From Longimicrobiales bacterium (GTDB taxonomy: Bacteria > Gemmatimonadota > Gemmatimonadetes > Longimicrobiales > Gaopeijiaceae): DNA of 64,000 nucleotides. Position numbers and translations under genes: made by a program. The DNA lies in assembly GCA_965116905.1 (NCBI GenBank), contig OZ220732.1, forward strand, positions 3,456,001-3,520,000, in the 5' to 3' direction. The notes beneath the pieces are model-generated. The model searched no databases, was not told the origin of the DNA, and worked only from the letters and a program-made list of their open reading frames with translations. Numbering within the stretch: position 1 is the first letter of the stretch; each line of letters opens with the position of its first letter. Of this stretch, positions 41,657-44,957 are shown in pieces.

Positions 41657-41722
41657 GGCTAAGCCAGCCTACCCCTTGTGGGTACAAAGGGGCTGGCGAG
41701 GGGCTCCGCCCCTTCGATCCCC
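41657..41722 (-). other. oriT-like site A (ColE1/MOBP5 geometry)
   Basis: Minus strand: GGGGCGGAGCCCC-TC-GCCAG-[25 nt with CCCCTT..AAGGGG IR]-CTGGCTTAG. CTGGCTTA matches the ColE1 nic sequence. Confidence 0.65.
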
Positions 41723-41867
41723 TAAAGGCCAGCGCCCGCGGCACTCGGCACAGCCTAGCTCCTCCCGTCATGGGGCAACCGGGGCAATGGACCCGGTAGG
41801 GGGGCGCGGCCCATGTCTACCACCCTTCAGAATCCGGCCCCCGATCAAGAGGCAGATAAGGTCGTCC

Positions 41868-43190
41868 CTACGGCGAGTCCTCCCCGGTGGATGCCGAGTC
41901 GTCGGATCTGAAAGCGAGGCACTGGAAGTAGTCGTCAATGCGTCTGTACTCCGAGTCGTCCGAATTCATGAAGTCTGCCAGTCTTCGGATCACTTCGTCC
42001 TTGACTTCGGGTGCTGACATTTCGACGAGTTCTTCGTTGGAGAGGATCTCCGTGCGATAGCCCTTTTCCCAGCCGTAGCCCGCGTCCCAGACGGAGTACC
42101 CGTCTGGTTTCTGTCTGTTGATCGGCGTCTTCTCCATGAACCCCTTTAGCCGATCCACGAAGGAACGCTCCTCGCTGCTCTTGCTGTAGAAAGTGAAGTC
42201 CATTTCGACTCTTTGATGTGAGAATGCCATGTACCAAGAAAGGGAACCCCGGTGGCCGCCCATTCTCTGCACGGCGTCACGCAGGGTCGCGTCGGTCCAT
42301 CCCAACCAGTACCAGGTCCGAGAGGGGTTGTTGGAATACGCAGGCGTAACGCCCCGGCCCTTCAAGTAGCCTGCCACCGCAGCCCGCAGTTGCTTCGGAT
42401 CGTGTCTGGACTCCCGCACCAGCTTGGCTAGCGAGTCACGGTACTCTGTCCGGTCTGTCGGCACCATCCCGCGAACGCCGTCGTCACCGTCCTTGTCCAG
42501 GACCCGGCGCATCTCCTTCAGGATGGAGCGATGGTGGTCGAGAAGCGCCTTGAAGCCCTCGCTACCGGGACGAAACCACCTCTCGACCATATCGAGGTAC
42601 TGCCGGATGAATGCCTGGACGTTTGGAGACGGAAACCCCCCAGCTGCAAGGATCGAACCGATCTCATCGCGGACAGAGTCCCAGCCGACATGGGCGATGC
42701 CCCGGAAGTTCACGCTTCCGTCCGGCGAGGTTGTCAACAGGACGCTTCTCACCGTGTGGTCCTTGTGCTTTCTGAGTAGCGTCTCTTGGTAGCCCATCAC
42801 TTGGTGAAGATGGTGGGGATGCGCGGATTCCGGCTTGTTTTCGACGGCGATCAAACACTTCTCCTTCTTGAAGAAGATCGTGACGTCGACGTAGTCCCGT
42901 TCTCTCCAGACCTCGACATTCCCCGCATGGAAGCTGGCCTCGGGAAGATGTTCCCTATCCTCCTCCGCGAACCGCCTAGTGACGTGGTTGACAAACCACT
43001 TCAGGAACTGCACGCCGATTCCGTGGGTGTCGGCGGGCCGGAGCAGCCACGCCAGCACGTTGCTGTGGCGTATTTCGTAGCCCGAGTACCTGAGAACATC
43101 GAACGTGTTGAATTCCCTTGGCTCCACGAGCTCTCGATGGTATGCGCGGAACCGGGAGTCGTCGATCAGGTTCCGCAGGTCGCCTTCCAT
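41868..43190 (-). CDS. PD-(D/E)XK nuclease family protein
   Basis: ATG 43190 after GAGGAGG; 'FNTFDVL...EIRHSNVLAWLL.P..THG.G..FL', 'VDVTI...IAVENK', 'HQ..Y'. Confidence 0.8.
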   Translation of the reverse strand: MEGDLRNLIDDSRFRAYHRELVEPREFNTFDVLRYSGYEIRHSNVLAWLLRPADTHGIGVQFLKWFVNHVTRRFAEEDREHLPEASFHAGNVEVWRERDYVDVTIFFKKEKCLIAVENKPESAHPHHLHQVMGYQETLLRKHKDHTVRSVLLTTSPDGSVNFRGIAHVGWDSVRDEIGSILAAGGFPSPNVQAFIRQYLDMVERWFRPGSEGFKALLDHHRSILKEMRRVLDKDGDDGVRGMVPTDRTEYRDSLAKLVRESRHDPKQLRAAVAGYLKGRGVTPAYSNNPSRTWYWLGWTDATLRDAVQRMGGHRGSLSWYMAFSHQRVEMDFTFYSKSSEERSFVDRLKGFMEKTPINRQKPDGYSVWDAGYGWEKGYRTEILSNEELVEMSAPEVKDEVIRRLADFMNSDDSEYRRIDDYFQCLAFRSDDSASTGEDSP

Positions 43191-43432
43191 CCTCGCCCCT
43201 CCTCTGAGTGCGGTGTGCAGACCGCGCCTTTCGATACGGACCACCGGAAAGTCAGAGTGAGCAACCGGTCTCGCAAGGCCAGTCACGACTGCCCCTCGCA
43301 GTCTATCGGCGGTACTCTGGCCGCCGATGCGCGGATCATCTGCGGGGCAAGCTACGTGAGTGCACCGGAGAATGGGCTCAGGGCGCAGTTCTCCACGACC
43401 GTCCGCTGCCTTGGCAGCGGCGCGGAAGCCTT

Positions 43433-43497
43433 GGGGTCAAAGGGGGCGGAGCGCCCCTTGCCAGCCGCGACGTTCAACGTTGCGTGTGCCGGCTCCC
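43433..43497 (+). other. oriT-like site B, near-copy of the level-2 oriT
   Basis: 43460..43497 matches 47161..47198 at 35/38 nt and is preceded by a similar GC hairpin. Confidence 0.8.
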
Positions 43498-43652
43498 GGA
43501 CATTAGCACGCCGGGAGCCAGCCCTTGAGGGCCGCCTCCGCAACGCCGCTCCGGGCATCGCCCGGTACAGCCTCGGCCGGGCCGTCGCGGGCAAGCTCCG
43601 CCGCGTCGGCGACGGGCGGTTCGCCCTGCCGCGCGCCCGTTTTCGGCCCTAC

Positions 43653-43696
43653 CTCTACCCCTCGGAGACCCGAGCTCTACCCCTCGGAGACCCGAG
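43653..43696. repeat. Tandem 22-bp direct repeat CTCTACCCCTCGGAGACCCGAG x2
   Basis: Two exact adjacent copies. Confidence 0.85.
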
Positions 43697-43819
43697 ATCG
43701 TGCGTCAGAGGCGATCCTGCGGCCCGCATATGACCCGAAAGGCCCCTTGGACCGCCCGCAAACGGGCTCCGAGCCCGTCGAGGCGGGTAGACGGGACCGA
43801 GGGGTCGGATCAGGCTCCG

Positions 43820-44000
43820 TTGCCCCTCCCGGCCCGCCAGATACTCCGCCCACTGCTCCATCAGGACGCGACGGCGCTCGAACAAGTCCGAGCGGGCGTA
43901 GGCCGCCTCTACCTTGTCACGGACCGCGTGGGCCAGCGCGGCCTCCATGACTGCGTGGGGCGCGTCGGTGGGCTCCGCGGCCCAGTCCCGGAAGCTCGAA
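43820..44000 (-). pseudogene. C-terminal remnant of a P4-type integrase
   Basis: 'SSFRDWAAE..DAPHAVMEAALAHAVRDKVEAAYARSDLFERRRVLMEQWAEYL'. Confidence 0.8.
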
Positions 44001-44171
44001 AACGCCCGCACGGCCATGGTCGCCGTCCGCCTGACGGCGGTCGAGGTCGAAGCGCCGTTATTGACGCCACCCAACCACTCGTCGAGTATTCCCGATCGGG
44101 TACAATTGACCGGCCTCCAACTCATCCGCGTCCATCGGGGCGCGGACCTGCCTCCAGAAAGGGTAACGGAC

Positions 44172-44819
44172 ATGGGCAGCTCGCATGATGCCGTCATGCA
44201 GTACGTGGAACAGGAAATGAAGAAGGACCCCGGCGTGAAGAATGCCACCCTGTTCGCCGGTGCCCGCGAGATCGACGAGTCGATCGGGGAGCTTAGGCCG
44301 CAACAGTTCCACGCCAGGTATCGGCTGCCGGTGACGCGGCGGATGGCGGAACAGCGACGGCCCGCACGGCAAGCGAAGGCGGCCCCGACACCCGAACCCG
44401 CGCCTGCGGCATCAGGTGATGGGGTTGCCGTCATGGAGTACGTGGAGCGGACGCTTGAGGCGAACCCCGGAATCACGAACGCGGACCTGTTCGCGGGTGC
44501 CCGCGAGATCGACCCCTCGGTAGCGCAACTCTCGGCTCGGCAGTTCCACGCGAAGTACCCTCTCCAAGTGAAGGCGCGGCTCGCAAAGGCCGCCGCGCCC
44601 GAGCCCAAGACGCCGCCGGAACCGGAGGAAGCAATGGCTGAGGAGCCCACCGCCCCGGACGTATCGTCGGCGGGGGAGGGCGACCCGCTCGCGGTCCGCC
44701 GCCTGCTGCTCGATCTGGCGAAGGAACTCGCGAACGCGGAGAGCAAGGCGGAAGTGATCGAGGTCATGGCCCGGCTGGACGACTACGTGGCCGAGATCAT
44801 GGAGGCGGCACGAGGTTGA
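44172..44819 (+). CDS. Hypothetical protein with two tandem copies of a ~55-aa domain
   Basis: 'AVM.YVE......PG..NA.LFAGAREID.S...L...QFHA.Y.L.V' occurs twice, with P/A-rich linkers and a helical C-terminus. Confidence 0.75.
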   Translation: MGSSHDAVMQYVEQEMKKDPGVKNATLFAGAREIDESIGELRPQQFHARYRLPVTRRMAEQRRPARQAKAAPTPEPAPAASGDGVAVMEYVERTLEANPGITNADLFAGAREIDPSVAQLSARQFHAKYPLQVKARLAKAAAPEPKTPPEPEEAMAEEPTAPDVSSAGEGDPLAVRRLLLDLAKELANAESKAEVIEVMARLDDYVAEIMEAARG

Positions 44820-44898
44820 GTCGTCCGCGCGCCTCGGTGGCCCGTGGCGCGCACGGCACGATGAAGATAGGCCAAGAGCACCGCGCGGACGCAGTGCG

Positions 44899-44957
44899 GG
44901 GGTCCGGGGGTATCCCCCGGCCAGAGTTTTTCGTGAAGCGAAAACACATCTGGCTCC
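44899..44957 (+). other. oriT-like site C (ColE1/MOBP5 geometry)
   Basis: CCGGGGG-TAT-CCCCCGG hairpin, then GCCAG-[25 nt with TTTTCG..CGAAAA IR]-CTGGCTCC. Confidence 0.6.

Follow-up and report, generated by a model that had tools for sequence, protein, structure and literature searches.

A relaxase-less integrase element in a Gemmatimonadota genome carries three oriT-family sites belonging to two relaxase families

Integrated islands with an oriT and no relaxase (iOriTs), plasmids that mimic several oriT subtypes, and IMEs that target their helpers are all known (10.64898/2026.01.13.699239; PMC8136818; PMC5704250); the further literature covered here comprises PMC11389934, PMC10123127 and PMC9282650. 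OriT-only islands have been described at scale only recently and are mostly single-origin. In the iOriT study of Ares-Arroyo et al. (bioRxiv 10.64898/2026.01.13.699239), which deals with six nosocomial species, a single oriT is found on 85% of the islands, and the others often have two from the same family. Mimicry of oriTs with several specificities, which a sequence-only reading of the DNA analyzed here had named for staphylococcal plasmids, is indeed on record there, for example in pWBG762 (PMC8136818), and the ColE1 nick is placed within CTGGCTTA in PMC5703827. Our literature search, made mostly without subscription journals, returned no paper on such elements in Gemmatimonadota or on an iOriT combining two relaxase families.

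The element studied here lies in a 64,000-nucleotide stretch (the window) of a Longimicrobiales bacterium (contig OZ220732.1). It is a 6.4-kb tyrosine-integrase element at 39961-46356, bounded by 9-bp TGTTGAGGC direct repeats, and it splits the ColE1-type mobA of another mobile element. The features of the element and of the host operon are, in their order along the window:

38816..39960 (-): host mobA, 3′ part, with nested mobB (39109-39609) and mobD (38860-39096)
39961..39969 (+): left direct repeat TGTTGAGGC, the crossover core; it falls on the mobA codons for the conserved SLNIAPPG stretch
39970..40110 (+): conserved left end of the integrase-element family (blastn matches at 10 other places in the genome; motif scan)
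40275..40661 (+): 128-aa cargo gene, product with a lipoprotein-like N-terminus by eye and no family
40828..41349 (+): T5orf172/MUG113 cargo gene, PADLOC candidate PDC-S57 (E 2e-18)
41657..41722 (-): site A, ColE1-type oriT with the spacer variant TGT-ACCC-ACA and an intact CTGGCTTA octamer
41868..43190 (-): PD-(D/E)XK nuclease cargo gene between A and B, PADLOC candidate PDC-S26 (E 3e-35)
43433..43497 (+): site B, an oriT of ColE1 type that belongs with the host MobC clade, with CCGGCT for CTGGCT and one inverted-repeat pair broken
43829..43999 (-): 3′ remnant of a P4-type integrase gene, abutting B as intact copies do in relatives
44172..44819 (+): gene for a 215-aa two-repeat hypothetical protein, in the place of C's mob operon in relatives
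44899..44957 (+): site C, a near-consensus oriT with intact hexamer, from a second (VirD2-like MOBP) relaxase family
45090..46253 (+): tyrosine integrase gene of the element, intact
46348..46356 (+): right direct repeat TGTTGAGGC
46357..46729 (-): host mobA, 5′ part (split ColE1-type relaxase)
46719..47054 (-): host mobC (NikA/MobC ribbon-helix-helix), intact and lying upstream of the interruption
47129..47198 (+): host cognate oriT, site D, of the same class as B

The two halves of mobA align to adjoining positions in three intact paralogues of the same genome, and contigs of run X23 cross both element junctions with zero differences. The earlier claim that the element lacks a relaxase was upheld: not even a remnant of a relaxase or MobC was found inside it at E≤1 (best values 0.23 for MobC and 0.42 for relaxase), and 39961-46356 contains no mating-pore genes. 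The 215-aa protein matches Gemmatimonadota clusters only, all of them without a name. Neither an excision circle nor an empty-site joint was seen in the contigs of public runs. In one X22 contig, 41722 is joined to 44895; one side of the joint covers just 29 nt, and the contig may derive from another organism. The element is enclosed by an IME with a P4 integrase (14-bp repeats at 35471-35484 and 53539-53552), itself enclosed by an ICE that adjoins tRNA-Val and carries genes of the VirB2, 3, 4, 6, 8, 9, 10, 11 and coupling-protein types. The genome has three intact mob operons of the ColE1 type and a set of MPF-T genes.

The sequence-only reading had described A, B and C as sharing one architecture, consisting of a G/C hairpin, GCCAG, a 24-25-nt spacer with its own inverted repeat, and C(T/C)GGCT. 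This description was confirmed at the positions listed above, as were the match of 35/38 positions between B and the mobC-upstream site D and the differing spacers of A, B and C, which represent three classes. The ColE1 bom layout had also been given correctly, the ColE1 record reading GGGGCGCAGCCCTGAC-CCAG-25 nt-CTGGCTTAA. Because a loose regular expression (GCCAG-N22-27-CYGGCT) produced 89 matches in the 4.2-Mb genome, which is chance level, profiles were used in its place. An nhmmer model built from four mobC-adjacent sites, with A, B and C excluded, detected A at E 4e-12 and B at 4e-9 and missed C, while a model built on two C-type sites that adjoin mobC in a relative detected C at E 8e-16 as its sole match in the genome below E 0.5. 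When models were rebuilt from the cognate sites of relatives, 11 ColE1-type sites and one C site were found in the genome at E<0.02, all 12 in integrase islands. The hairpin-CCAG-spacer architecture was recognized by eye upstream of mobC on ColE1 and five other plasmids, and by profile as well on five of these six (E<0.01). At the nick region, judged as for ColE1/MOBP5, where the exact cut is CTGG^CT, A carries the exact CTGGCTTA, C carries CTGGCT and B carries CCGGCT. By these sequence measures, A, B and C are oriT-family sites.

To relate spacers to MobC proteins, 244 sites were collected from 151 stretches of 18 genomes; since 60 of the stretches were chosen by similarity to C and 80 by integrase, the sites are not a random sample. 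A mostly intact mobC adjoins 72 sites and a remnant 7, and the other 165 are orphans. On a tree of the 72 MobC proteins, the six spacer groups require five label changes, which is the minimum, and clades B, m64 and C reach SH-aLRT values of 98-100 (quick tree). In relatives, spacer type tracks MobC clade almost one-to-one; as shared ancestry alone gives such clustering, the tree shows linkage rather than binding.

Site C precedes a mobC and a gene of about 400 aa with a Relaxase domain in 22 of the 24 loci inspected in relatives, the other two being one locus that ends after mobC and one with a broken relaxase. The C-linked relaxase is MobA/VirD2-like and accompanied by a distinct mobC. It matches alphaproteobacterial and planctomycete plasmid relaxases, and C-like sites occur upstream of mobC on three distant plasmids from the same two groups (E 7e-7 to 5e-5). 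Judged from this gene neighborhood, C is the origin that belongs to a second relaxase family, which is VirD2-like. Two other assignments were rejected: that C is a ColE1-type variant, as it is missed by the ColE1-type profile and its relaxase shows no significant BLAST similarity to the ColE1-type relaxase of the host (E 0.12), and that it travels with a MobC alone, as a relaxase gene follows in relatives. Matches to C occur in 31/53 genomes of the genus, and the C-terminal half of its relaxase, used as query, has matches in 26/53, truncated copies included. The present genome holds no intact C helper; there is only a 3′ fragment, amounting to half, of a C-type relaxase and no cognate mobC.

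Site B belongs to the MobC clade of the host element. An earlier caveat, that B has CCGG for CTGG near its predicted nick, proved well placed: this is a change from a nearly invariant base, CTGGCT being present at 7/7 complete cognate B sites, and CCGGCT at 1/65 complete cognate sites across all classes and at no orphan other than B. Because of this departure and of one inverted-repeat pair that is kept in D and broken in B, site B is probably weakened and decaying.

Site A has a spacer loop of 4 nt, the nearest class being m64 with a 3-nt loop, and its orientation and position are native for this integrase-element family. The A-type pattern has 33 matches in GTDB and one in metagenomes, from four phyla. 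An intact mobC lies beside none of these 34 and a frameshifted remnant beside one, as searched with four MobC queries (E≤1e-3/1e-4) that a very divergent MobC could escape, and with two sequences (L161/L220) stopping about 270 bp past their A-type site. Three matches come from genomes labeled Gammaproteobacteria, Acidobacteria-type and Rhodothermales (L198, L214, L218); the L218 match is on a 3.2-Mb chromosome and those of L198 and L214 are on small contigs, possibly mis-binned. Five of 29 distinct A copies are interrupted, and CTGGCT is kept in 22 of the 24 others (counted by eye). Conservation falls to 31-72% directly after the hexamer, hairpins and 3′ flanks vary, and covariation in the spacer is weak (15/500 shuffles). 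The m64 MobC clade, which is intact at 64.7 kb in G000, is probably the candidate reader of A. The proposed search for spacer copies upstream of other mobC operons was thus successful for B and C, for which cognate helpers with their own MobC are present in the genomes examined, and failed for A (0/34 by intact mobC).

Since the element has no transfer genes of its own but three origins from two relaxase families, it likely hitch-hikes on whichever helper is present. On balance we favor, with some confidence, the reading that it is an oriT-only hitcher: it would excise, thereby restoring the host mobA, and helpers would nick and export it in trans. Excision would be carried out by its integrase; the MobC of a helper would bind the spacer repeat of the matching site, the helper relaxase would nick within CTGGCT, and the circle would exit through the type IV system of the neighboring ICE. 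Relaxase and MobC would in this way be borrowed from sister elements and the mating pore from a conjugative element, and C would need an incoming VirD2-like helper. From the state of their motifs, A and C are likely working origins, and B probably contributes little. The sequence-only reading had taken the sites as a set of oriT mimics serving the host relaxase and two other MobC specificities. What stands of this is that they are oriT-family sites, that spacers match MobC clades, that B is of the host type and that the design recurs; what has to be given up is the third MobC specificity, as C belongs to another relaxase family, and A is without an intact cognate mobC in its 34 matches.

For the layout, the best explanation is that mob operons were lost and sister elements recombined, not that foreign mimics were captured. 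Two designs are native to the family, left end-cargo-oriT(<)-mobCABD-int and left end-cargo-relaxase-mobC(<)-oriT C-int, and a fusion of one's left arm with the other's right arm would have removed both operons and left A and C facing apart, while B would have arrived with a P4-integrase module. Pieces of the element are found apart in other genomes: A-215aa-C in G038, PD-(D/E)XK-B along with a complete P4 integrase in G052, T5orf172-A in G001 and G021, and, in other genera, A/B pairs accompanied by a complete P4 integrase.

Relatives of the element show signs of mobility. G002, G005 and G021 share a 2.1-kb A-bearing segment of relaxase-less A+C elements at 97.4-99.5% identity, against a gyrB identity of 84.9-85.3%. 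This comparison draws on fragmented MAG contigs and does not single out a transfer route; on these contigs, neither relaxase family was found. In G052, a relaxase-less two-origin element of 5,919 bp is 100% identical at two sites. Among the seven elements with the closest integrases (at least 86% identical, that of the window included), the right junction falls at one and the same mobA position in five, whose hosts represent three MobC clades; of the other two, one lies in mobB and one elsewhere. Other integrase lineages have inserted in oriT just 5′ of TGGCT, in mobC, in mobD or in sibling integrases. As to the number of origins, 96 of 151 integrases have a left end in reach and 90 of these are not nested, giving 61 elements without an intact relaxase (two split) and 29 with one, counts that leave out twenty further integrase loci. 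At least two origin types are present in 22/61 relaxase-less elements vs 3/29 relaxase-bearing ones, rows that include near-duplicates and kin that are not independent. Sixteen of the 22 combine C with a ColE1-type site, in 9 genomes, and three carry three types. The enrichment persists when the present genome is excluded (21/59 vs 3/26, p 0.035) and is not significant among integrase-picked loci only (8/43 vs 1/14, p 0.43).

Some observations stand against the best explanation: orphan sites have decayed more than cognate ones, B is mutated, and the C helper is not intact in the genome. The hexamer is a perfect CTGGCT in 112/150 orphans (75%; 15 interrupted dropped) and 60/66 cognates (91%; 6 dropped). 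The sites could then be neutral leftovers of lost mob operons, the element moving only within the genome or as a passenger of the IME or ICE. Such a course would agree with the imperfect hexamer in 38/150 uninterrupted orphans, with the P4-integrase remnant adjoining a mutated B, with the nesting of element in IME in ICE, and with the lack of significant multi-origin enrichment in the unbiased subset; in addition, the divergent arrangement of neighboring orphan pairs (36/49) follows from deletion geometry, as a single deletion or recombination suffices without selection. We nevertheless consider it unlikely, because the A-type spacer and hexamer have been kept across genera and phyla where no intact cognate operon was found, because conservation drops sharply just past the hexamer (to 34-73% at the next bases of orphan sites), and because near-identical relaxase-less copies occur in distant genomes. 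Another possibility, which we regard as improbable, is that the sites are kept for a function other than transfer, either as mob-derived promoters or operators for cargo, or as recombination or landing points that shuffle cargo. B does point at the beginning of the PD-(D/E)XK gene, in the way that D points at mobC, and in L217 A faces the start of the 215-aa gene, but genes on the hairpin side point either way, and at A of the window a gene end faces the site. Many family members integrate just 5′ of TGGCT, orphan sites included, and homology blocks shared with relatives often end at or near sites; a landing pad, however, gives the host element no obvious benefit, and the conserved part is the nick hexamer itself. 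A REP-like nature of the motifs, as repeats spread over the genome without relation to mob loci, was named at the outset as what would refute the oriT reading, and the 89 regular-expression matches might seem to point to it; it is practically ruled out by the confinement of the 12 profile sites (E<0.02) to integrase islands rather than the core chromosome, by the linkage of spacer class to the adjoining MobC clade, and by the recurrence of this architecture in front of mobC, on ColE1 as well as on five further plasmids.

Beyond the hitcher reading, we suggest tentatively, as a possibility that may well prove wrong, that sponge-type symbionts harbor a relaxase-less guild that collects working origins for two unrelated relaxase families, in which a phylum-crossing, hitcher-only A would be read by several MobC clades, and insertion in the helper's relaxase gene would let relaxase be made only after excision. 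The family offers a natural series, with five MobC clades each having its own spacer, two relaxase families, and orphan origins twice as numerous as cognate ones. It allows direct tests of how hitchers arise from helpers, whether extra origins widen the range of helpers, and whether an origin can evolve on hitchers alone. The family is also a possible route of cargo exchange among uncultured sponge-type symbionts of different phyla.

The comparison with known systems can be drawn as follows. With ColE1/MOBP5 the locus shares the hairpin-CCAG-spacer-CTGGCTTA arrangement and a mobC-mobA operon with nested mobB and mobD, and the host relaxase is 33% identical to that of ColE1 over 129 aa. Unlike ColE1, the locus is chromosomal and integrase-borne, with the oriT directly upstream of mobC and with H-x-H in place of the ColE1 motif at the metal site. 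Like plasmids of the pWBG762 type (PMC8136818), which have two or three oriT subtypes, the element carries several subtypes without a relaxase, the subtype being set by an inverted repeat beside a constant core; a ribbon-helix-helix factor goes with each subtype there, and with B and C here. Those are plasmids of one relaxase family for which binding and mobilisation have been shown, whereas the present element is integrative, involves two relaxase families, has origins apparently inherited from sister elements, and is predicted from its sequence to be mobilised. IME_oriT and its kin (PMC5704250) are likewise elements with a tyrosine integrase whose insertion sites lie in a helper's oriT or transfer genes. 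IME_oriT relies on a relaxase of its own, whereas the present element lacks one and has its target in another hitcher's relaxase gene. The remaining comparison is with the iOriTs of the study by Ares-Arroyo et al. The element is, like them, integrated, with att repeats and a tyrosine integrase as recombinase, without relaxase or pore, with an oriT like that of a relaxase-bearing element, and with candidate defence cargo adjoining the oriT; the oriT being of IME type in both, two helpers would be needed. It differs from the islands of that study in having three origin types from two relaxase families, in residing in Gemmatimonadota, and in being inserted in the relaxase gene of a helper.

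The studied element, which is relaxase-less and carries a tyrosine integrase, is the innermost of three nested elements (window coordinates):

25067-59844 (the nest as a whole): outermost, an MPF-T ICE at tRNA-Val, carrying an integrase of the studied element's family
35471-53552: middle, a P4-integrase IME that splits an ICE gene located between VirB10 and VirB6
39961-46356: innermost, the studied element, which splits the relaxase of the P4-integrase IME

The ICE gene split by the IME has no Pfam hit and is VirB5-like by position only. Each time one of these elements left the gene it splits, a transfer gene would be restored. 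Also in the ICE, the product of a 306-aa gene adjoining the coupling protein (window 32584-33504), for which no Pfam match was found, is possibly the ICE's own processing protein. The host IME is without a family integrase of its own (window 38683-38810), the upstream region of that integrase is still present, and a PEGA-domain gene begins at the spot occupied by the integrase start codon in intact paralogues.

The closest integrase subfamily has hit the same mobA position in five of the seven elements examined (window 46348-46356 and loci L013, L018, L034 and L054), in hosts that belong to three different MobC clades. Other lineages of the integrase family target the oriT itself (L006:150-330, at 3540.2 kb in the window's genome, and loci L023, L076, L109, L127, L135 and L142), where the repeat's last base is the C of CTGGCT, the predicted nick hexamer. 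The identical oriT spot is also struck by IS-like insertions.

Integrase-family copies number 31-37 per genome in some relatives and zero in others (genomes G035, G041, G049 and G052 in the copy survey). One integrase segment, L214:1-666, from a genome labelled Acidobacteria-type, is 99.4% identical to that of L107, from a genome of the window's genus, an identity that may reflect either recent cross-phylum transfer or mis-binning.

Further orphan origins, sites of the oriT family without an adjoining mobC, occur elsewhere in the window's genome:

L006:6050-8320: divergent pair of origins, spacer types B and TAT, flanking a split GmrSD gene
L007:11039-12560: orphan origin between a PD-(D/E)XK gene and McrBC

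The gene of a 215-aa protein (window 44172-44819) recurs between origins; the protein has two repeats of ~55 aa, and its clusters come from Gemmatimonadota only. A separate module, found in several genera (L164, L166, L039, L078), combines a whole P4-type integrase with a divergent origin pair, the origins lying ~230 bp apart or enclosing one cargo gene.
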